Virus record (IMG/VR): IMGVR_UViG_2874920711_000013 | Coordinates: 1-15,952 of that record | Origin: a virus | Taxonomy: Duplodnaviria > Heunggongvirae > Uroviricota > Caudoviricetes | Length of the DNA stretch: 15,952 nt | Strand: one strand, 5' to 3' | The notes under the pieces: generated by a model | What the model was told of the DNA's origin: nothing | Database searches by the model: none | What the model saw: the letters and a program-made list of their open reading frames with translations, nothing else | In this document: piece by piece, positions 1,904 through 15,952 of the stretch | Layout of the letters: every line of letters begins with the position of its first letter | Position numbering within the stretch: position 1 is the first letter of the stretch | Translations under genes and position numbers: made by a program

Positions 1904-3165
1904 TCAGGCTGCCTTATGCTGCCGCGCATAAATGTACGGCGCGACATACCCCTCGCGGCACACATCCAGATAATCCGACCACCACTGCATCATGGCCTTT
2001 CTGGCCTCCAGATGCTCTGCTTTATGCACATATGCCGCCCGCACGCTGTTGCGCTCCTGGTGGCTCATTTGCCGCTCCACCGTATCGCGTGACCACAGGT
2101 CCGACTCCACCAGGGCGCTACAGGCCATTGCCCTGAGTCCATGCCCACAGACTTCAGTTTTCGTATCATACCCATCAGACGCAGCGCCCGGTTGGTGGTG
2201 TTTTCACTCATTGGCTTGTACGGATTATGGTCGCCGGGAAACACCAGATCCAGATGGCCGGAAAGCTCCTGTATCTGTTTCAGAATGGCAATCGCCTGGC
2301 GGGAGAGCGGCACGATATGCGGGGTACGCATTTTTGCGCCACGCCCCGAAAACCGTACTTTATCAATTGCCTCGCGGGTGGCGGGAATGGTCCAGATTTT
2401 GTGCCTGAAATCGATCTCGCTCCAGCGGGCGAAACGCAGCTCGCTGGAACGGATAAACAGATGCAGCGTCAGCCCCACCGCCAGCCGGGTTAACTCCCGG
2501 CCCTGCCGGTAGTCGCCAATGCGGCCAAGCAGTTCAGGCAATCGCTCCAGCGGTAAAGCGGGATAGTGATTCTTTACGGGTGAGGCGACAACGCCATCCA
2601 GATGCTGCGCCGGATTGCTTGCGGTCAGTCCCTGCTGAACGGCATAGCGCATGATGTTGCTGAGTTGCTGCCGGGTTCGGGACGCGACTTCCAGGAAGCC
2701 TTTATCCTCAATAATCAGCAGTAAAGCCGTGAAATCCTGCGTTTTAAGCGTGGCAACGGGCAGATGACCAATCGCCGGGAAGATATGGTTTTCCATACTG
2801 GCGAGAATACGGGCGGCATACTCAGCCGACCATTTTTTGTTGGTTTTGTGCCAGGCCAGCGCCACCGCCTTAAAGCACTTTTCAGGGGAGCAGGCTGCTT
2901 TCTCTGCCATGCGCTGCTGCGCCGGGTTGATATTCTGCGCCAGTAACTTACGGATACCGTCGCGCTGCTGCCTGGCTTCTGCCAGTGAGGCCAGCGGATA
3001 TGCGCCAAGACTGACTCTGGATTCTTTTCCGTTGAAACGATATTTGCGATACCAGATGCGTGAACCGCTCGGATTGACGAGCAGATACAGACCGTGAGAG
3101 CCGGAGAGTTTTACCGGACGGGAAGAGGGTTTTAACTTGCGGATTTTAGAATCGTTTAAAGACAT
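1904..3165 (-). pseudogene. P4-type tyrosine integrase (DUF4102 N-terminus plus phage-integrase catalytic domain), interrupted by one frameshift
   Basis: N-terminus MSLNDSKIRKLKP...GLYLLVNPSGSRIWYRKYRF is typical of P4-like integrases; ATG at 3165 with GGAG upstream. The catalytic C-terminus (HGLRAMACSALVES...SHQERNSVRAAYVHKAEHLEARK) is in another frame (1904..2182). The frames are reconciled by one extra base in the C-run at 2171-2173. The gene sits beside the 3' side of tRNA-Asn in the same orientation. Confidence 0.85.
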
Positions 3166-3326
3166 TTGAGGGTCACTCCAGAATCGAACCAAACTGCCCC
3201 CAGATCTGACCACCAAATTATCCCGATGCGGAGAGAAAACTAGATACGCACCGGGAAGGATTTTCACGCTAACTTACTGAATCGTAAACAAATAGAAACG
3301 TACAGATAAGCATGAAAACTTGAATT

Positions 3327-3502: not shown

Positions 3503-4300
3503 TTAATGAACATTCGTCGCCGAAAACGAGTCTGTATCATTAGCGTGATGCAGTCTCTGCAAAGGATCTTGTTGATAAAATTGGCAGAAACGTTGCCACA
3601 ATGAAGGGAAACGAGGAGCAAAAAGTTCTGGGGCGCTAAAGAAATATTCAGAAAGTACGGCAAAACATTCAGCAGGATCGCTGGCAGCATAAGCATCAAT
3701 GCTCGCCGCATTCTCGCCAACTAATTCGATTTCTTCCTGAATGTTGTTCATTGCAGCATGAAGATCGTGTTCCCAGCCAGCAACCTCACGCAACGGAATA
3801 AAGGGAACTCCGCTGGCGCGATCGCCGTTACGGGTGTCCAGCTTATGAGCGACTTCATGAATAATCAGGTTAAAACCAGAAGCATCAAAAGAATCTTGTA
3901 TATCCAACCAGTTCAAAACGATAGGCCCTTGCTGCCAGCTCTGACCTGACTGAACAATACGTTGGTTATGCACCAGACCGATATCGTCTTCCCATTCATC
4001 ATCGACCACAAATGGCGCAGGATAAATTAAGACTTCATGAAAACCATCCAGCCATTCCAGTCCTAACTCCAGAACGGGTAGGCAAAATAGAAGTGCTATC
4101 CGGCAGCTTCTTAATGAATCCAGTTCAAAGCTCTGTAAAGGAACAAGCCGCTTTTGCTGTAAAAAACGTTCGGCAAGAGTGACTAATTTGCTTTGTTCCT
4201 GTTCCGTCAGACACGTTAAAAGGGGGAACGATAGTGCTTCCTGCCAGGGAAGGGCAGTTTGATGTGCTGATTCTTGTACTTTCCAGGGCCACTTAATCAT
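3503..4300 (-). CDS. mtfA: MtfA (Mlc titration factor A; zinc-dependent peptidase family), 265 aa
   Basis: Protein begins [23 protein letters not shown] and contains the HEVAH zinc-binding motif. It lies between the Asn and Ser tRNA genes, as mtfA does in E. coli K-12. Confidence 0.9.
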
Positions 4301-4393
4301 CGTTTTGCTCGCAAACTCGTCACTTGAACAAAATTGCACGGACAGGGACTGTTAAAATGCCAAATTTCTTGGCATCATGGCAACCATCTGAAC

Positions 4394-4528: not shown

Positions 4529-4559
4529 CTTGGAATTACTTGGAATATTTTCTTGGAAT
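4529..4559. repeat. three direct CTTGGAAT repeats between the serU 3' end and the end of int (candidate integrase arm-type sites)
   Basis: CTTGGAAT at 4529-4536, 4539-4546 and 4552-4559. The last two are a 13-bp tandem repeat inside the final int codons (ENIPRKYSK). Confidence 0.45.
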
Positions 4560-5561
4560 ATTTTCAGGTAACGGGACATCAAGTGTCGGTGAAACTTTAA
4601 CCTTCCTGTCATAGATTAGCACTTGCCCCTCGGTTTTGTGACCAGAGAAAAGTTGCTTATCCCGACTGCTTCCTTCATAGTCTGAAATTCCTTTCGCCTT
4701 CAGATCATGAAAGGTGAAGTCGGTTAAAATACCTGAAATTTTGCCTGCGCGATTTCTTGCTTCTACCCACATTTCGTTAAAGCCTTTGTACATATATCGG
4801 TTGCCGTATTGATTGCTGATTACATAGGCGGATGTTGGTAACTGTTTTGCTTTTTCGATCGCCGCCTGTAATCGTGGACTCCATGCTTTTATCTGTTTTT
4901 TTCCTGTTTTCCCTTGCTGGATAAAGATCCCGTCGTTTCCAATCTGCTCCCATTTCAGCGATAACACATCGGAAACCCTCGCTGCACACAGATAGGCAAT
5001 TTCCATTGCGATAAAAACAGGAAGAGGTGCAACGCTTAATACTGCCTGGTATTCTTTGTCGGTTACATATCGTTCGCGGTTTTTGGCCTTGAATTTACTT
5101 ACACCTGCACATGGGTTAGCCTTCACGTACCCTCGCTCATACCCCCAACTGTAAACGCGGGACATACTGCTTTTTTCATGGTTGGCTTGCGTTTTACTCT
5201 GTTCCCCTCTCTTGTCCATGTATCGACGGATGTGTTCTGGTTTTATGGAATCTGCCGGCACCTTACCGAATACGGCAAGCAACTTTTTTTGATGTTGCAG
5301 ATAATCTTTTTGTGTTCTTGGACTGAGGTCACTGTAATAGGCGCTGGCGAGGAATTTTTCCCACAAGCGACCGAATGTCATTGCACGATCGCGATTATTT
5401 ACAGTTTCCTCATACTTTTTCCATAAAGCAGCTAAACCATCCTTGATGGCGGTTAGTGTTACAGATTCTCTGGATGTTGGTTTCCATACATAACTATATT
5501 TATTTGGGTATACATTTGGAGGTAATTTTTCGTGTTCAGGATTTTTCCTTCGTCTTCCCAT
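4536..5561 (-). CDS. int: prophage integrase, lambda-Int family tyrosine recombinase, 341 aa
   Basis: N-terminus MGRRRKNPEHEKLPPNVY resembles the lambda Int arm-binding domain. Catalytic region carries R (AARVSDV), K (QGKTGKK), H (FTFHDLK), H (SGHKTEG) and Y (VLIYDRK). The gene converges on the serU 3' end and is coupled to the upstream xis (TGATG overlap at 5559-5563). Confidence 0.9.
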   Translation of the reverse strand: MGRRRKNPEHEKLPPNVYPNKYSYVWKPTSRESVTLTAIKDGLAALWKKYEETVNNRDRAMTFGRLWEKFLASAYYSDLSPRTQKDYLQHQKKLLAVFGKVPADSIKPEHIRRYMDKRGEQSKTQANHEKSSMSRVYSWGYERGYVKANPCAGVSKFKAKNRERYVTDKEYQAVLSVAPLPVFIAMEIAYLCAARVSDVLSLKWEQIGNDGIFIQQGKTGKKQIKAWSPRLQAAIEKAKQLPTSAYVISNQYGNRYMYKGFNEMWVEARNRAGKISGILTDFTFHDLKAKGISDYEGSSRDKQLFSGHKTEGQVLIYDRKVKVSPTLDVPLPENIPRKYSK

Positions 5562-6738: not shown

Positions 6739-8010
6739 TTAAAAATCAGCCTGACTCGGGATCAGTTTTTGCCAGATAGCTGAAACGTATTTTGCCTGGT
6801 AACGAGCGTCATCAAGTGCATTATGGCGCTCACCTTCGAATGGAATAGCCGTTCTGGCATCGAAGTCTATGGCTTTCCCCAGCTCAACGATTGTGCGTAC
6901 ATCGCGATCGTTGTAGTAACGCCACGGGCAGGGGATCCCCTGCCGTTCGTATGAACGGCGCAAAATCGTGTTGTCGAAGTTGGCTCCATTTCCCCAGACC
7001 TGAACAAAAAATTCACCGGAGTTTTCGTCGATAAATTCCCGCAATTGTAACAGTGCATCATCTAACGGGATTTCATCGGTCATAATGGCAGATTGCGCTT
7101 CGCGTGATTGCTTAAGCCACCATTTAATGGTGTCCCGATCAATGACTCCGCCAGCAGTTTCCAGATCGATAGTCTTACTAAATTCGGGTCCCATATCTCC
7201 GGTTTGCGGATCGAAAAATATTGCACCTATTGAGATGATCGGGGCATCAGGATTTTTTCCCATGGTTTCAAGGTCGATCATTAGATGGTCACACGTCCTG
7301 CTGGTGGATGTGATTTCGTGATGACCATTCACCGTAATTAAGGGATCTGCCGTCTCGCCAGTTTTACTATCGCTGGCGTGGTCCTGAGCGCTGCCAGCAT
7401 TCTCCTTGTGTGGATGTTCAGCGCCTTCCATTTCCTCCGGATCATTTTCCTGAACTTCAACCTGATTCTCTTCATCGAATGTTTTCTGGTATGTTGCGTC
7501 GTCCATCACCGCGCCACAATCAGGGTAGTTGCCGCCACCGCTCTGACCGCAGGCGGTGCAGACTTTTTCCGGTTCCTGTTGCGCTACTGGTTCGGATTGT
7601 TTCGTTTCTGGCTCGTTTTGTAACGCATTTGGGCTGTTTTGTTCCGCTTTTTGGTCGTTCCGTTCCGATTCATGCTGGTTCTGGTTCACAGAATCGCGAG
7701 TCTGGATCCCCTTGACCCATTTCGGATCATTAGGGTCGCTAATCCCCTCAACAAATTCACCACGCGATACAGCAAGTAACTTATCGGCGTCAGGCTGGCT
7801 GATATTGGCTGCCTGCATAATTTTGTTTACTTCGTCAGCGGTGACTTTTACTTGGTTAGCGGAACTCACCTGCGACTGAGCATCCAGCGACTGCGCGTTC
7901 TGGCAATGTTCAGTTGTATCCGGTTCCATTGTTTCAGTTGTTGCCTGTTCACCTGCCATTGCGTCAGATGGTTGTGGTTTTTCTTCTTCTGTTTCACGCT
8001 CAGTAACCAC
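6739..8010 (-). CDS. prophage exonuclease: DnaQ-like DEDDh 3'-5' exonuclease domain after a long acidic low-complexity region; true 5' end uncertain
   Basis: C-terminal domain has the three DEDDh motifs: [21 protein letters not shown] and [14 protein letters not shown]. The listed start is a GTG with a poor ribosome-binding site. Coding-like sequence continues upstream in another frame (8045..8219) across an A5 run at 8038-8042. Confidence 0.75.
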
Positions 8011-8163
8011 CTCGCGGTTAATTTCTTCCAGGATATCTTTTTCCGGCGTATGCCGGGCAGCTGTGAGAGTTTCCTTGCTGGGTTCTCGTGATCAGTTTCT
8101 GTCAAATAGGCGTTGATATACCCCTGAAGGCGTCCCGGGTAGTGATAAAATTCAGGGGTGCGC

Positions 8164-9177
8164 TTAGGATAAGTGCAAAAATAGCGGCGCGGGAATAGTC
8201 CAGAATACCCGGGTTGCACGAAGTGCTGCGGACCATTCTTTGAACGGACTTTCTTTTTTCAGGACTACTTCTTTTGCGCGACGATAAACGCTGCCCGGAA
8301 TTTCATAAATATTAAAATCCATCGGAAGTGTGGCTGCTGCAATCTCCACATCCAGTGTGTCGAGGGTGTGTACTAAATTCGGATTGCGATCGGTTTTGTT
8401 CCCACCGCCAGCATTAGCACCGGAAGCCGTGCGGGTGATGCGTGAAACACGATTTCCTTTCATCCACTCTTTTGTCAGCAGACCCCGATCAGTGTAGTCA
8501 GCGTCCAGGTATGCTTCGAAAAAAGCAGTTATTAGTCCCAGGTCTGAATTACCAGGATTAGGGAAAACTTTGTCAGTGTCACGAACCAGTTTGTGGAGGT
8601 CGCGAATCTCCAGCGAGTCGAGCAGACTGGTTTTATGCGAAATAGCCAGGGCAGTAACAGCCGGTAGTTCTTCAGCCCGTGCAATGTGTAATGCCTGGAG
8701 TTCGTCGCGTGAAACGTGCGTTACTGGTTTTTCGCTGCCGTGTTGAGCAAGCCAACGAATGGGCAGTTCCTGACCGGAGACAGGTAGAAGCATGCTCTCC
8801 TCAATCTCAGTCATGTCTTCGCCGTTGATGTTGGTATTATCAGTGCTGGCTGATTTGTCCTGAACAGAGGGGGAAGGGCCGATAAATGTCATTGTGATGC
8901 CATCTTTCCCGCCTTTTTCATAGCGGTTGCAGAATTCAGTATCAAACACGCCTTCTGGCGGAAGGTCGTCAACAACGGGCAAATTGACGCGGACGGGTTT
9001 TTTAAAGTCGTCTTCATCATAATCGTTGTCATCCATTGCGGTAATGCAGCGGGAGATTGCAACAGATAATTTTTTTGCTGTAGTCCAGTAAAAACCACCT
9101 TTAATTCCTAGGCGTTTTCTTACTTTGACATTTTTTGCTTCGCAATATAGTGCAAATTCTTCTTTATCAGTGCTCAT
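8164..9177 (-). CDS. prophage protein of unknown function, 337 aa; possibly the N-terminal part of a larger exonuclease protein
   Basis: Long ORF with ATG at 9177. It occupies the ydfE-like position after ydfD in a Qin-type gene order. It is in the same frame as the exonuclease ORF. Confidence 0.6.
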
Positions 9178-9820: not shown

Positions 9821-9873
9821 AGGGCGGCAGAGCAGTCACGGAGTAAAACTGATACCGCCAAACGTCACCAGAA
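9821..9873 (-). ncRNA. dicF: DicF small regulatory RNA (Hfq-dependent antisense RNA, ftsZ inhibitor)
   Basis: Minus-strand sequence TTTCTGGTGACGTTTGGCGGTATCAGTTTTACTCCGTGACTGCTCTGCCGCCC followed by a T-run (9816-9820). The terminator hairpin is GGCGG...CCGCC. Identification is from my recollection of the DicF sequence. Confidence 0.8.
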
Positions 9874-10749: not shown

Positions 10750-10893
10750 GCTGACCTCATTTCCCCTTAACGCCGGGGTAGCGGAACAAAAACCTGCTGC
10801 ATAGTTATTAAGTAAGCGCCCCATCAGCGACGTCTTGTGAAAATTGTCCTGTCTGGCAACAATCGCGCCCATCTATATTGATGGACACGAACG

Positions 10894-11568
10894 ATGAATT
10901 CCCAGACAACAAAAGATATTCCCTGCTTCCGTTCTTATTTGCCTGATGCCCTGCGTTTAAGATTTGAAGATAAACTGACCATCCGGGCCATCGCTCAGCG
11001 TCTGGGTCTCAGTCATTCCACAATACATACGCTTTTTCAGCGATTTCTTGCATCCGGTATCGCATGGCCATTGCCCGATTCAGTTTCATTCGCTCAACTT
11101 GACGCCATCCTTTATGCCAACAGAAAGAAGGAATTAACAGAGCCTCAAATCAGAGAAGGCTCATGGCGAAAAGAACGGCGAACCAGCTATAGCCGTGAAT
11201 TTAAGGCCCGTCTGGCTAAGCAGGCGTTACAGCCTGGGGCTGTTGTTGCCCGGATCGCCAGAGAACACGATATCAATGATAACCTGCTGTTTAAATGGAA
11301 AAGCCAGTACGAGGACGGCTTACTGAGCGATGATGACATACAGGAATGCATGCCTGTCCCGGTGGCACTGACTGATACGCCGGAGCCGACCAGACCAGTT
11401 ACAAATCCCTTCTGGCGTAACAAGCATGATGAGCGCCCTGAGGGGGCTCCCGGAAACGTCCCACGGTGCGAGCTGCATCTTAAATCAGGTGTGGTAAAAC
11501 TGTTTGACCCTCTCACTCCGGAACTGTTACGGGCGCTAATCCGCGAAATGAAAGGGGGTATCCGATGA
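10894..11568 (+). CDS. IS66-family accessory protein OrfA (helix-turn-helix), 224 aa
   Basis: C-terminal half (RRTSYSREFKARLAKQALQPGAVVARIAREHDINDNLLFKWKSQYEDG) matches the IS66/IS3-type OrfA pattern. ATGA overlap with the next gene at 11565-11568. Confidence 0.7.
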   Translation: MNSQTTKDIPCFRSYLPDALRLRFEDKLTIRAIAQRLGLSHSTIHTLFQRFLASGIAWPLPDSVSFAQLDAILYANRKKELTEPQIREGSWRKERRTSYSREFKARLAKQALQPGAVVARIAREHDINDNLLFKWKSQYEDGLLSDDDIQECMPVPVALTDTPEPTRPVTNPFWRNKHDERPEGAPGNVPRCELHLKSGVVKLFDPLTPELLRALIREMKGGIR

Positions 11569-11912
11569 TAACGCTGCCGACCGGTACCAGAATCTGGATC
11601 ATCGCTGGCATCACAGATATGCGTTGTGGCTTCAATGGCCTGGCTTCGAAGGTGCAGAACACGCTGAAAGATGACCCGTTCTCCGGGCATATCTTCGTCT
11701 TCCGGGGCCGCAGTGGCAAAATGGTGAAAATACTGTGGGCCGATCGTGACGGGTTATGCCTGTTCGCCAAACGCCTGGAACGGGGCCGCTTCGTCTGGCC
11801 GGTGACCCGGGAAGGGAAAGTGCACCTGACGCCAGCTCAGTTATCCATGCTACTGGAGGGGATCGCGTGGCAACATCCCAAACGGACAGAACGGCCTGGC
11901 ATCCGGATATAA
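11565..11912 (+). CDS. IS66-family TnpB (Orf2), 115 aa
   Basis: MITLPTGTRIWIIAGITDMRCGFNGLASKVQ...KMVKILWADRDGLCLFAKRLERGRFVWP is the characteristic IS66 Orf2 sequence. Confidence 0.85.
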   Translation: MITLPTGTRIWIIAGITDMRCGFNGLASKVQNTLKDDPFSGHIFVFRGRSGKMVKILWADRDGLCLFAKRLERGRFVWPVTREGKVHLTPAQLSMLLEGIAWQHPKRTERPGIRI

Positions 11913-11931
11913 CCCGTGATAAAACAAGGGA

Positions 11932-13487
11932 ATGAACAATGAACTCCCCGATGATATTGAGCTGCTTAAAGCCATGTTGCGTAAGCAACAGAGTCGGCTT
12001 CGACAGTATGCCTGTCAGGTCGCGGGCTATGAGCAGGAAATTGAACGGCTGAAAGCGCAACTCGACAGGTTGCGTCGTATGTTGTTCGGCCAGAGTTCAG
12101 AGAAAAAGCGTCATAAGCTTGAAAATCAGATCCGACAGGCAGAAAAACGACTGTCGGAACTGGAAAACCGGCTGAACACAGCCAGAAATCTTCTGGAAGA
12201 TGCATCGTCAGTCACAGATTCACCTGACACCAGTCCCCCGTCAGAAAACCCGATCGCCAGTAAGCCTGAATCCCCGGGAGACACATCGCCTTCTGCCTGC
12301 TGAAACCAGTTGCCCGGCCTGTGGAGGTGTTCTGAAAGAAATGGGGAAACAATCTCAGAGCAACTGGATATCATTAATACCGCCTTTAAAGTTATCGAAA
12401 CCATACGTCCCAAACTGGCCTGTAGCCGGTGTGATGTCATCGTTCAGGCACCACTTCCCCTAAACCGATCGAACGCGGTTATGCCAGTGCAGGGTTACTT
12501 GCACGGATCCTGGTCAGCAAATATATGGAACATATCCCTTTATATCGCCAGTCAGAAATATACGCGCGACAGGGCGTGGAGCTGAGCCGTAATACCATGG
12601 TGCGCTGGGTATCAGAAATGGCAGACAAACTCCGTCCTCTGTATATAGCGCTGAATGACTATGTTCTGGAGGCAGGAAAGGTGCACGCAGATGACACTCC
12701 GGTGAAAGTACTGGCCCCGGGGAACGGAAAGACGAAAACGGGTCGTCTGTGGGTATACGTCAGGGATGATCGTAATGCGGGTTCATCCCTGCCGGCAGCC
12801 GTCTGGTTCGCGTATTCGGCAGATCGCAAAGGAGAACATCCGCAGCTCCACCTGGCAAAGTATCAGGGCGTACTGCAGGCTGATGCCTATGCAGGTTATA
12901 ACGTACTGTACGAAACGGGCCGGGTGAAGGAAGCCGGGTGCCTGGCCCACGCCCGCCGAAAAATCCATGACGAGGATGTGCGCCGTCCGACAGAAATGAC
13001 TCAGGAAGCGCTCAGACGGATAGCAGAGTTATACGACATAGAAGCGGAGATACGTGGCAGTCCGGCAGAGGAACGGCTTGCAGTCAGAAAAGCCAGAAGC
13101 GTCCAGTTGATGCAGTCGTTGTACGACTGGATACAGTTGCAGAGGAAAACGCTGTCGAAATATGCGGAGATGGCGAAGGCGTTCGACTATATCCTGAATC
13201 ACTGGAATGCGCTGAACGAGTTCTGTCGTGACGGCTGGGTGGAAATAGACAACAACATCGGTGAAAACGCGTTACGATCGGTGGCGGTTGGAAGAAAAAA
13301 TTATCTCTTTTTCGGCTCAGACAAGGGAGGAGAAAGTGCGGCGATCATCTACAGTCTGCTGGTCACCTGCAAACAGAACGAAGTGGAGCCGGAGGACTGG
13401 TTGCGCGAAGTGATCGAGAAGCTCAATGACTGGCCGTCGAACCAAGTGCATGAACTGCTGCCCTGGAACTTCTCGTCTGTAAAATAA
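11932..13487 (+). pseudogene. IS66-family transposase TnpC, broken by four single-base frameshifts
   Basis: N-terminal coiled coil (11932-12303), CxxC segment LPAETSCPACGG (frame of 12200-12463), SEQLDII...[16 protein letters not shown] (frame of 12310-12585) and the DDE domain LYRQSEIY...HADDTPV...[10 protein letters not shown] (12525-13487) lie in different frames. Shift sites are GGG 12276-12278, CC/TT near 12289-12292, GGGG 12343-12346 and CCCC 12457-12460. Confidence 0.85.
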
Positions 13488-13639
13488 TCCTTACGCTACG
13501 TACTTCTCGGGGCGCTTACGTTATTAAAGTTGAACCCTGCCGTCATGTTCTTACGCCTCGGGCTGGCTACTTAACCCCTGACCACTGCCTGGTAACTCGA
13601 AGTATTGCCCTGCATTCTGTGGGCGGGGTGGGTGGCAGG

Positions 13640-13690
13640 CATATAATGTACTTTGCGTTCATTGTTGTAAAGTACTTTTAGTACATTTTG
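13640..13690 (-). promoter_or_regulatory. candidate leftward early promoter (pL-like) with flanking operator half-sites
   Basis: On the minus strand: -35 TTTACA (13666-13671), 17-bp spacer, -10 CATTAT (13643-13648). The heptamer ATGTACT or its complement occurs at 13647-13653 and 13680-13686, with palindromic AGTACT at 13671-13676. Confidence 0.4.
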
Positions 13691-13761
13691 TGTGTAAAAA
13701 AATGAGATGGGATAAAGTGAAGCACAAACCCGGAGGAAGGCGCTACCGGATTTATGCTGGT

Positions 13762-14181
13762 TTAAGAGGCTTTTTGTTTTTTCTTTCGTGCTAACTCTTC
13801 GTAAATTGCATTGTACTTCTGTTTTTTCTCTTCAAGAGTTTTTAAAAGTTCATCTGTCTCACTGTCAGGGAGCTCGTCCAGAAGGTCAATGATGATTTTT
13901 TGTCTTGGATTTAACTCCTGATAGAAACGTACCTGTCCACTTTCTTCTGTATCCTCTCCCAAAAGATAGGTTGGTGTTGTTCCTATTAGTGTTGCTAATT
14001 CCCTTAATTTCTCCCGGCGAGGAATTGTTTCGCCATTAAACCATTTGCTAACCGCTTTTGGTGTTAATTTCATTCGACGGGCAATTTCTGCCTGCCTTCC
14101 ATGTTGTTCATAACCAGCGTTTTCACAGGCTAGCGCAAGCCTACTGGCGAACTCTTTACGCGCTTTATCTTCATGAACCAT
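13762..14181 (-). CDS. dicA: prophage repressor, DicA/RacR-like (N-terminal XRE-type helix-turn-helix, no peptidase domain), 139 aa
   Basis: Helix-turn-helix region FASRLALACENAGYEQHGRQAEIARRMKLTPKAVSKWFNGETIP with a charged C-terminal tail. It is divergent from the Cro-like gene and, once IS66 is removed, lies directly upstream of ydfA-ydfB-ydfC-dicF-dicB. The dicA name is by synteny only. Confidence 0.75.
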   Translation of the reverse strand: MVHEDKARKEFASRLALACENAGYEQHGRQAEIARRMKLTPKAVSKWFNGETIPRREKLRELATLIGTTPTYLLGEDTEESGQVRFYQELNPRQKIIIDLLDELPDSETDELLKTLEEKKQKYNAIYEELARKKKQKAS

Positions 14182-14260
14182 AAGTTCAATGATATTCGCT
14201 CTTGAATGTACTGTCAGTTCTGTTATAGCATGTACTCAAAGTTCACATTGTGAGGGTGAT
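14182..14260. promoter_or_regulatory. divergent immunity control region (back-to-back pRM-like and pR-like promoters with operators)
   Basis: Leftward: -35 CTGACA (14212-14217), 17-bp spacer, -10 TATCAT (14189-14194), 7 nt before the repressor ATG, implying a leaderless transcript. Rightward: -35 TTGAAT (14202-14207), -10 near 14224-14229, GAGGGTG ribosome-binding site at 14253-14259. ATGTACT heptamers at 14206-14212 and 14230-14236. Confidence 0.5.
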
Positions 14261-14515
14261 ATGAACCAGAAAACACTTGAAGATGTAATCAAAACTGTTC
14301 GCGTTGCTGTTGTGGCCGACGTTTGTGGTGTCAGCCAAAGAGCAATCTATAAATGGATGGATAACGGAAAATTGCCTCGCACAGAATATACCGGCGAAAC
14401 AAATTACGCTGAAAAAATCGCTCTTGCATCAAACGGATTATTTTCTGCCGATGCAATTTTAACTATTGGCAGGAATAAAACTACTACGAAAAAGCTGATG
14501 GGAGTTGATTCATGA
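14261..14515 (+). CDS. Cro-like / YdaS-like helix-turn-helix protein, 84 aa
   Basis: ATG at 14261 with ribosome-binding site; helix-turn-helix segment VADVCGVSQRAIYKWMDNGKLP. Divergent from the repressor and translationally coupled to the next gene (ATGA at 14512-14515). Confidence 0.7.
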   Translation: MNQKTLEDVIKTVRVAVVADVCGVSQRAIYKWMDNGKLPRTEYTGETNYAEKIALASNGLFSADAILTIGRNKTTTKKLMGVDS

Positions 14516-14838
14516 AAATCAAGCATGAACACATCCGCATGGCGATGAATGCCTGGGCGCATCCGGACGGCGAAAAAGTACCGGCTGCGAAAATTACCAA
14601 AGCGTATTTCGAGCTGGGAATGACGTTCCCGGAACTGTATGACGACAGCCATCCGGAAGCCCTGGCTCGCAATACTCAGAAAATTTTCCGCTGGGTGGAG
14701 AAAGACACCCCTGATGCGGTTAAAAAAATTCAGGCGTTGTTACCAGCTATCGAAAAAGCAATGCCACCTCTGCTGGTGGCCCGAATGCGCAGTCATAGCT
14801 CAGCCTATTTTCGGGAACTAAATAGCTGCGCGGAATAG
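14512..14838 (+). CDS. YdaT-like protein, 108 aa
   Basis: N-terminus MKIKHEHI matches what I recall of Rac-prophage YdaT. The stop codon TAG (14836-14838) lies 2 bp before the IS630 left end. Confidence 0.6.
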   Translation: MKIKHEHIRMAMNAWAHPDGEKVPAAKITKAYFELGMTFPELYDDSHPEALARNTQKIFRWVEKDTPDAVKKIQALLPAIEKAMPPLLVARMRSHSSAYFRELNSCAE

Positions 14839-14840
14839 TA

Positions 14841-15952
14841 GATCACTTTGAGGGAACTTAGCCCGGATTGTGCGATCTGATCAATCGCCAAATCAAAACA
14901 AATCACCAACCGGACTGAGCAATGCCGATCATAGCACCAATTTCCCGTGACGAACGACGCCTGATGCAGAAAGCCATCCATAAAACACACGATAAAAATT
15001 ATGCCCGCAGACTGACTGCCATGCTGATGCTGCACCGGGCGACCGTGTCAGCGACGTTGCCAGAACGCTCTGCTGCGCCCGTTCCTCTGTTGGACGCTGG
15101 ATTAACTGGTTCACGCAGTCGGGTGTTGAGGGACTGAAATCATTACCTGCCGGGCGTGCCCGTCGCTGGCCGTTTGAGCATATCTGCACACTGTTACGTG
15201 AGCTGGTAAAACATTCTCCCGGCGACTTTGGCTACCAGCGTTCACGCTGGAGTACAGAACTGCTGGCAATAAAAATCAATGAGATAACCGGTTGCCAGTT
15301 AAATGCCGGAACCGTTCGCCGCTGGTTGCCGTCTGCGGGGATTGTGTGGCGAAGGGCTGCGCCAACTCTGCGTATCCGTGACCCGTATAAAGATGAAAAG
15401 ATGGCAGCAATCCATAAAGCACTGGACGAATGCAGCGCAGAGCATCCGGTCTTTTATGAAGATGAAGTGGATATCCATCTTCATCCCAAAATCGGTGCGG
15501 ACTGGCAACTGCGCGGACAGCAAAAACGGGTGGTCACGCCGGGACAGAATGAAAAATATTATCTGGCCGGAGCGCTGCACAGCGGGACAGGTAAAGTCAG
15601 CTATGTGGGCGGCAACAGCAAAAGTTCGGCGCTGTTCATCAGCCTGCTGAAGCGGCTTAAAGCGACATACCGTCGGGCGAAAACCATCACGCTGATCGTG
15701 GACAACTACATTATCCACAAAAGCCGGGAAACACAGAGCTGGCTGAAGGAGAACCCGAAGTTCAGGGTCATTTATCAGCCGGTTTACTCGCCATGGGTGA
15801 ATCATGTTGAACGGCTATGGCAGGCACTTCACGACACAATAACGCGTAATCATCAGTGCCGCTCAATGTGGCAACTGTTGAAAAAAGTTCGCCATTTTAT
15901 GGAAACCGTCAGCCCATTCCCCGGAGGCAAACATGGACTGGCAAAAGTGTAG
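14841..15952 (+). mobile_element. IS630 (Tc1/mariner-like insertion sequence), partial; right end beyond the window
   Basis: The transposase matches my recollection of IS630 (MPIIAPISRDERRLMQKAIHKTHDKNYARRLTAML...HGLAKV). The left boundary is estimated (within about 5 bp) from the TA dinucleotide at 14839-14840. Confidence 0.8.
14922..15952 (+). pseudogene. IS630 transposase with a single-base frameshift
   Basis: N-terminal 40 aa are in one frame and the rest (..ELVKHSPGDFGYQRSRWSTELL...MPSAGIVWRRAAP...) in the -1 frame. Restoring one G in the GGG run at 15037-15039 gives a continuous reading frame. Confidence 0.85.

Follow-up and report, generated by a model that had tools for sequence, protein, structure and literature searches.

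Predicted HK022/933W-family operators on both sides of a DicA-type repressor gene in a lambdoid prophage remnant

Introduction

The stretch of DNA analysed here (the window; 15,952 bp, to which all coordinates refer) contains a small repressor gene with copies of the heptamer ATGTACT on both sides, and a promoter-like sequence directly before its start codon. The locus raises two questions: do the repeats mark the operators of a repressor-controlled genetic switch, and does the repressor mRNA lack a leader, as does that of lambda cI, the classical leaderless repressor mRNA? We consider it very probable that a lambdoid prophage (Qin/Rac-like, Tritos-type) has its immunity switch here, with predicted repressor operators on both sides of a repressor gene that is likely leaderless. 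Judged by their sequence, the sites are new members of the HK022/933W operator family, attached here to a short repressor of the DicA type. An earlier note on this DNA had read the repeats as OL and OR operators; that reading is supported by (i) the match to the operators of HK75 and 933W, (ii) the homology of the encoded proteins, (iii) the retention of the dyads in relatives, and (iv) their replacement by other dyads in heteroimmune phages. A full-text literature search returned no relevant paper tying ATGTACT to an operator and a repressor.

Results

The repeated heptamer is half of a 17 bp dyad

An exhaustive two-strand scan of the window finds ATGTACT at 13646 (+), 13680 (−), 14206 (+) and 14230 (+), and nowhere else. 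The count given in the earlier note (four copies within 600 bp, with no others noticed in the window) is thus exact, all copies lying within 13646–14236. By itself, a count of four is only mildly unusual: whole-window shuffles contain 1.18 copies on average, and 6 of 200 reach at least four. The clustering, on the other hand, is not chance-like, with a probability of ~2e-4 that four random positions in the window fall within 591 bp. The earlier note had proposed a genome-wide count as a check, and enrichment is indeed seen in phage Tritos, whose copy of the module is 98.9% identical: the complete Tritos genome (46.4 kb) contains seven copies, four in the module and three in the other 45.7 kb. 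Against this background, the Poisson probability of at least four copies in 600 bp is ~1e-7.

The heptamer is the outer half of a 17 bp dyad, ATGWACT-N3-AGTWCAT, and every copy has its symmetric partner 3 bp away. When up to three mismatches are allowed, the dyad gives 11 strand-hits in the window (1.49 expected; matched in 0 of 200 shuffles), 10 of which lie within 13646–14246. No other repeated dyad common to both intergenic regions was found. The heptamer noticed earlier is a real repeat, and the true unit is the dyad; a fifth site and the kinship with the HK022/933W family had been overlooked.

Five candidate operators and three predicted promoters

The repressor gene occupies 13762..14181 on the − strand. 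Downstream of it, a promoter scan places a pL-like promoter, the analogue of dicBp, at 13643..13671 (− strand; −35 TTTACA at 13671..13666, 17 bp spacer, −10 CATTAT at 13648..13643), in a position homologous to that of the annotated HK75 pL. Two dyads lie over this leftward promoter, as expected of the HK022/933W type. The first, O_L1 (13646..13662, ATGTACTTTGCGTTCAT; score 19.9 with a position weight matrix, PWM), overlaps the −10 element and aligns with HK75 oL1 within a conserved island. The second, O_L2 (13670..13686, AAGTACTTTTAGTACAT; PWM 20.8), lies 24 bp from O_L1 and aligns with HK75 oL2; its promoter-proximal half overlaps, by a touch, the −35 element, and the block GTACTTTACA at this site is unchanged across six lineages.

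Upstream of the repressor gene are two promoter-like sequences on opposite strands. The pRM-like promoter (14189..14217, − strand; −35 CTGACA at 14217..14212, 17 bp spacer, −10 TATCAT at 14194..14189) matches the consensus at 10 of 12 positions and is the best on the − strand in the promoter scan. The PR-like promoter of the cro-like gene (14202..14229, + strand; −35 TTGAAT at 14202–14207, 16 bp spacer, TGt plus TATAGC at 14224–14229) agrees only weakly with the consensus (4/6 and 4/6), falls under the scan threshold and was read from the sequence; its position is homologous to that of the annotated HK75 pR. O_R2 (14206..14222, ATGTACTGTCAGTTCTG; PWM 18.3) lies between the PR −35 and −10 elements, at −41 from the repressor ATG like HK75 oR2, and contains the pRM −35. 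O_R1 (14230..14246, ATGTACTCAAAGTTCAC; PWM 20.1) covers the expected PR start, at −65 like HK75 oR1. The two are 24 bp apart, and as a pair they span the cro-like promoter. Since O_R2 is centred at about −33 of pRM and holds its −35, activation or repression of pRM by repressor bound there cannot simply be read across from lambda.

The earlier note had placed each heptamer on a promoter element. This holds for the copies at 13646 (pL −10) and 14206 (PR −35, also touching the pRM −35), but not for the remaining two: at 14230 the heptamer is immediately adjacent to the PR −10 and spans the expected PR start, and at 13680 it is found upstream of the pL −35, at a distance of 9 nt.

The fifth site, O_R3 (14173..14189, − strand, TTGAACTTATGGTTCAT), is weaker, with a PWM score of 13.2, and lies over both the start codon of the repressor gene and the expected pRM start; it had gone unnoticed because the exact heptamer is absent there. 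The matrix was built from the four strong sites only, O_R3 being left out. Even so, O_R3 takes fifth place in the window and again in the complete Tritos genome, and its score is reached nowhere in 58.5 kb of background. Its 15 bp core is identical to that of HK75 oR3. Conservation at this site could partly reflect coding or promoter constraint, because it overlaps the Met-Val-His codons and the pRM discriminator.

Together, the window OR sites stand at −65, −41 and −8 relative to the repressor ATG, with 24 bp between the first two, 32–33 bp between the second and third, and the third on the start codon: the layout of HK022 and 933W. All five are symmetric sites of 15–17 bp whose halves each contain G-(A/T)-A-C at the core. 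Only two OL sites score in the window, and no HK022-like O_FR site scoring at least 9 is found downstream of cro.

The repressor has an HK022-type DNA-binding domain and a DicA-like tail

The repressor (139 aa; Pfam HTH_3) consists of a helix-turn-helix domain (approximately residues 1–75) followed by a DicA-like helical tail, and is 100% identical to the CI protein of phage Tritos. Its DNA-binding part resembles HK75 CI (47% identity over the first 100 residues, E 2e-31), and the recognition helices of the two proteins, TPKAVSKWFNGE in the window and TPKAISKWFNGE in HK75, are nearly identical. Residues 1–73 are 51% identical to the 933W repressor. From about residue 85, the tail aligns with that of K-12 DicA, to which the protein as a whole is 29% identical over 112 aa including the tail (BLASTP, E 5e-15). 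In the alignment, the S24 part is missing and a tail of ~40 aa stands in its place; likewise, Pfam reports HTH families only, and no S24 self-cleavage domain is found in the repressor. An HTH_3 domain with a short helical tail (LPxSE...EEL motif) in a protein of ~135–140 aa is the form of the DicA/PaaR2 short repressors. A sequence search of the PDB yields no close relative of known structure; the HTH domains of the P22 C2 and 434 repressors are the only matches, and weak ones.

The divergent cro-like gene (14261..14515, + strand) encodes 84 aa behind the Shine-Dalgarno sequence GAGGGTGA, and PGAP calls the same start in relatives. Its product and HK75 Cro share 56% identity (E 4e-31), such that both regulators of the window are homologous to CI and Cro of the HK022 type. 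At the cro/ydaT junction (14505..14522) lies a box for YdaT, the cII analogue (TTGATTCATGAAAATCAA), with the exact arrangement TTGATT-N6-AATCAA; the ydaT-like gene itself (14512..14838, + strand; Pfam YdaT_toxin) follows.

Behind the repressor gene, 4 nt past its stop codon, is a stable RNA hairpin (13721..13758, − strand; −19.2 kcal/mol, z = −4.1). The nearest T-run is ~20 nt off rather than adjacent, and no canonical intrinsic terminator is found on the − strand between the repressor gene and pL. The hairpin is possibly a 3' end or a stabiliser, and not a canonical terminator.

The dyads are kept in relatives and exchanged in heteroimmune phages

The relatives compared include Salmonella short forms that have HigBA as cargo, together with Raoultella and metagenome forms of the S24 type. 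Although their DNA-binding domains are only 62–72% identical to that of the window repressor, they keep dyads at −65 and −41 from the ATG. They also keep the OL pair, with its 24 bp spacing, beyond any cargo that follows the repressor gene. The region of OL and pL stands out as a conserved island of ~45 bp amid unalignable flanks. Two S24-type relatives, L010 and L011, share the DNA-binding domain and have other neighbouring genes, and keep the dyads at −65/−41. Across 28 distinct sites (56 half-sites) from eight lineages, the core G, A and C never vary (56/56 half-sites) and the base between G and A is A or T, while the central bases of the dyad vary freely.

The heteroimmune phages vB_EcoS-640R1 and vB_EcoS-689R5 provide the complementary case. 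Their flanks are 96–99% identical to the window; homology breaks at 13630–13633 of the window, only 12 bp from O_L1, and resumes at 14506. That the breaks flank the region in this way indicates that OL, the repressor gene, OR and cro form a single exchangeable immunity module. The ATGWACT dyad is absent from both phages (best PWM score 8.8). At the two corresponding locations, one phage has its own dyads of the form TGTTTT...AAAACA, and the other has dyads of the form AATCTAAA...TTAGATT.

The prophage of the window, with its DicA-tailed short repressor, is found in ~410 of 5,426 complete E. coli genomes, and relatives occur in Salmonella. The HK022-type DNA-binding domain is joined to two unrelated C-terminal modules: to an S24 domain in Raoultella, Klebsiella and HK022, and to a DicA-type tail in the window prophage and the Salmonella relatives.

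The repressor mRNA is likely leaderless

The earlier note had described a pRM-like −10 element located 7 nt before the repressor ATG. Reading the hexamers and gap back from the sequence gives the same result: TATCAT, with CTGACA 17 bp upstream, is followed by 7 nt (TGAACTT) and then the ATG (14181..14179). The gap is 7 nt in seven of the lineages examined and in 933W, and 8 nt in HK75. A −10 placed 7–8 nt from the ATG is too close to leave space for a Shine-Dalgarno sequence, and the repressor ATG is preceded by none in the window or in any of the eight lineages. A −10 hexamer 6–8 nt upstream of a start codon that lacks a Shine-Dalgarno sequence is the arrangement of the leaderless class. Given the distance from −10 to ATG, the repressor mRNA is likely leaderless, starting at the A of the ATG (the eighth nucleotide after the −10) or one base earlier. 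The N-terminus encoded from this ATG, MVH or MVQ, is kept in repressor homologues, including HK75 CI and 933W CI. There is precedent in prophage CP-933P, where the 5' end of the paaR2 transcript maps to the start codon by 5'RACE and the leaderless mRNA is translated (PMC8630535).

The switch in the window is a remnant

In the window, both regulatory genes (repressor and cro-like) are intact, as are the five sites. Both flanks have been altered by insertion sequences. On the left, ISSfl3 (IS66 family; 10812..13519, + strand) is bordered by an 8 bp target duplication, GTTATTAA, at 10804–10811 and 13520–13527, and is inserted downstream of pL, ~116 bp from its predicted start. The exact junction between ISSfl3 and the prophage has no match among GTDB representative genomes; the IS content may point to Shigella or enteroinvasive E. 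coli. The pL of intact relatives is directed at DUF1391-...-dicF-dicB-ydfD, as expected of DicA/PaaR2-type systems; in the window, DicF lies at 9822–9873 and ISSfl3 cuts the dicF-dicB operon off from pL. On the right, an IS630 element begins at ~14818 and ydaT homology with relatives stops at 14820, leaving 108 aa compared with 141 aa in relatives. The switch in the window is thus a remnant, with pL uncoupled from dicF/dicB by ISSfl3 and ydaT cut short by IS630. The IS-bracketed module may control nothing beyond its own expression.

Discussion

A model of the switch

In the proposed mechanism, a dimer of the 139 aa repressor would bind the 17 bp dyads, reading the G-W-A-C core in each half-site. 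Bound at O_L1 and O_L2, it would cover the leftward promoter, the presumed driver of DUF1391-...-dicF-dicB-ydfD in intact relatives; bound at O_R2 and O_R1, it would cover the cro-like promoter. Occupation of the four strong sites would then turn both lytic-side promoters off, and O_R3 would shut off repressor synthesis when repressor levels are high or when the Cro-like protein binds. We infer repressor binding, cooperativity, the order in which the sites are filled and the 5' end of the mRNA, together with a possible OL–OR loop. HK022 CI binds cooperatively to adjacent operators and loops OL to OR (PMC8053113); because the C-terminal domain of the window repressor differs, these properties are not simply transferable. 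With a DicA-like tail and no S24 domain, induction would be expected to proceed through an antirepressor or a flip to Cro rather than through RecA-stimulated self-cleavage. Induction of DicA-type switches is independent of RecA cleavage, and occurs via an antirepressor or a bistable flip (PMC10448788); by analogy, the window switch would be induced along the same route.

Alternative readings

Could the heptamers be a chance cluster in AT-rich intergenic DNA, or mere promoter elements without any role in repressor binding? The intergenic DNA is AT-rich, the motif overlaps or abuts promoter hexamers, and a few whole-window shuffles (6/200) do reach four copies. Against this stand four copies packed into 591 bp (P ~2e-4, or ~1e-7 by Poisson against the Tritos background), each with a symmetric partner at 3 bp, and GWAC cores that stay invariant across eight lineages while the centres vary. 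The same sites are, moreover, annotated as operators in HK75 and 933W, and heteroimmune phages that share the flanks have other dyads in their place. We regard a chance origin as extremely improbable. It is also very unlikely, if a little less so, that the dyads serve mainly Cro or another protein while the 139 aa HTH protein recognises a different sequence. The Cro-like protein, being 56% identical to HK75 Cro, is expected on the same DNA, and the C-terminal half of the repressor is DicA-like and not HK022-like; the recognition helix, however, is nearly that of HK75 CI, the dyads persist at −65/−41 beside the S24-type repressors despite their other neighbours, and the two intergenic regions share no second repeated dyad.

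A further alternative accepts the operators and concerns the transcript: the repressor mRNA could start upstream, at a YdaT-activated pRE-like promoter around 14505–14522 or elsewhere, or translation could use a different start codon. The exact YdaT box is present in the window, and a second promoter dependent on cII or YdaT also feeds the repressor gene in lambda and CP-933P (PMC9986795). A pRE transcript would accompany the leaderless one rather than replace it, and since ydaT is truncated, the pRE-type route is probably dead in the window genome. Against an upstream start stand the best − strand promoter (10/12), which ends 7 nt before the ATG, and the conservation in eight lineages of the −10 and its distance to the ATG, with no Shine-Dalgarno sequence in any; against another start codon stands the MVH/MVQ N-terminus conserved in homologues. 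On balance we judge this alternative unlikely, and retain the reading of an immunity switch with operators on both sides and a probably leaderless repressor mRNA.

Significance

Operators, promoters and a likely HK022-like specificity can now be assigned to an immunity module that occurs commonly among prophages of E. coli and Shigella, is also present in the viable phage Tritos, and in intact prophages controls the toxic dicF-dicB operon. The module is a clean natural case in which the C-terminal (induction/oligomerisation) module of a repressor is swapped while the DNA-binding domain and the operator layout remain fixed. If the short form binds cooperatively and with HK022 specificity, it would provide SOS-independent immunity against phages with HK022-type immunity, and the remnant between the IS elements could have been kept as a domesticated gene for superinfection immunity; we put this forward tentatively, as a possibility that is rather doubtful. 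For specialists in phage switches, the result is a useful annotation of an ordinary member of a known family, and holds no surprise.

Comparison with known systems

Among characterized systems, the Qin prophage pair DicA-DicC of K-12 resembles the window in its repressor, a 135 aa HTH protein with the same type of C-terminal tail (PMC10448788, PMC3441716). DicA likewise controls dicBp of the ydfA-dicF-dicB operon from operators that flank the repressor gene (PMC10448788, PMC3441716). In contrast, DicC is not a Cro of the HK022 type, and the DicA operator sequence differs because the DicA DNA-binding domain belongs to another, P22 C2-like lineage.

Prophage CP-933P of E. coli O157:H7 also has a short, S24-less repressor (PaaR2, the CI analogue), with a divergent cro-like ydaS gene followed by ydaT, the cII gene (PMC8630535, PMC9986795). 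It shares OR and OL operator sets and a pL analogue with the window, and TTGATT-N6-AATCAA has been footprinted at the same place, the cro/ydaT junction (PMC9986795). The two differ in that PaaR2 is followed by the toxin-antitoxin pair paaA2-parE2, which the window lacks, and in the operators: the PaaR2 palindrome has the consensus GTTTAGTAA (PMC8630535), against ATGWACT-N3-AGTWCAT here. An assignment of the window sites to the GTTTAGTAA palindromes was rejected on sequence, and the window dyad does not have DicA/PaaR2 operator specificity.

Phage 933W is closer in its operators. Its half-sites start with CG where those of the window start with TG, its recognition helix reads SSKGVSKW against TPKAVSKW, and its CI has an S24 domain; otherwise, its site is likewise rotationally symmetric and built around G-(A/T)-A-C. 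Mutagenesis shows that positions 2–5 of the 933W site (G, A/T, A, C) set repressor affinity (PMC3317979). The layout is the same too: OR sites lie at −64/−40, the annotated oR3 starts at −7, on the ATG, and 7 nt separate the end of the annotated pM from the start codon of cI.

The nearest match is HK022/HK75, for which we used the GenBank annotation of HK75 together with PMC8053113. The immunity region consists of CI, Cro, oR1–3 and oL1–3 (Carlson & Little 1993, as cited in PMC8053113), and the HK75 operators, annotated as similar to those of HK022, are TGAACTTATGGTTCA (oR1 and oR3), GGAACTGATAGTACA (oR2), TGTACTACTGGTACTT (oL2) and TGAACTTTAGGTAC (oL1). Differences lie in the repressor, where the window has a DicA-like tail instead of the S24 autocleavage/oligomerisation domain; in the sites, with only two scoring OL sites and no O_FR-like site after cro in the window; and in the downstream genes, which are cII and nun in HK022/HK75 and of the ydaT and dicF-dicB type in the window. 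Shared with the window are the operator core TGWAC-N5-GTWCA, the placement of the OR sites relative to the cI ATG (oR1 at −65, oR2 at −41, and oR3 at −8, over the start codon itself), an OL pair 24 bp apart, and the pL −35 TTTACA.

Insertion sequences around the immunity module

The repressor/cro cassette is intact, and is bracketed by two insertion sequences: ISSfl3 and IS630. Judged by these elements, the DNA may come from Shigella or from enteroinvasive E. coli. ISSfl3 (IS66 family), together with its 8 bp target duplication (GTTATTAA), occupies positions 10804–13527, between the leftward pL-like promoter and the DUF1391/dicF/dicB operon; its tnpC reading frame is in two pieces (11932–12303 and 12525–13487). 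The insertion leaves the toxic cell-division inhibitors disconnected from both their promoter and their operator. Despite the separation from pL, the dicBF operon is still present in the window: a full-length DicF sRNA is found on the minus strand at 9822–9873 (Rfam RF00039, 76.7 bits), adjoined by homologues of dicB and ydfD.

Additional sequence features beside the repressor gene

Two further features lie on the pL side of the repressor gene. The first is a stable minus-strand hairpin (13721–13758; −19.2 kcal/mol, z = −4.1) that begins 4 nt past the repressor stop codon. It is not a canonical terminator; a T7 run lies ~20 nt beyond it. The hairpin may fix where the repressor mRNA ends ahead of pL, or stabilize that 3' end. 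The second is a perfect plus-strand TATAAT at the outer edge of operator O_L1 (13642–13647), for which no recognizable −35 element or TG extension was found. If active, it would generate antisense reading into the repressor gene; it probably reflects no more than the palindromic sequence surrounding the pL −10 element.

Operator-like dyads beyond the immunity module

In the relative carrying the same module, phage Tritos, the top-scoring match to the 17 bp operator dyad outside the immunity module is GTGTTCTTAAAGTTCGT (positions 24286–24302, score 12.8). It sits in the interval that separates the integrase gene from a small regulator gene, and may have arisen by chance. Separately, S24-type repressor relatives on two metagenome contigs (L010 and L011, at about 2436–2509) retain dyads at −65 and −41 from the repressor ATG. 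These relatives face an antiterminator-Q and lysis cassette rather than a cro-like gene, which is not where operators of this set are usually located.

Possible mosaicism or rearrangement in the left part of the prophage

A recE/exonuclease VIII homologue (6739–9177) is split into two ORFs, 6739–8010 and 8164–9177. Homology to Tritos is broken across window positions 7851–9172 (Tritos 27629–28985), while another relative (L005) is collinear with the window from 8303 onwards. The recE region appears to be mosaic or rearranged. Further left, two minus-strand tyrosine-integrase genes (2065–3267 and 4536–5561) flank an M90 metallopeptidase gene (3503–4339), an arrangement suggesting that two integrated elements meet at the left end of the prophage.

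A YdaT recognition sequence at the cro/ydaT boundary

On the other side of the module, a copy of IS630 (14818–15952; 99.7% identity to the annotated element) cuts the ydaT-like gene short, leaving 108 aa compared with 141 aa in relatives. An exact copy of the recognition sequence for YdaT, a cII analogue (TTGATT-N6-AATCAA), remains at 14505–14522, spanning the cro stop and ydaT start. The box coincides with position 14506, where homology to the heteroimmune phages picks up again. In the E. coli O157:H7 prophage CP-933P, the YdaT footprint lies at the equivalent location.
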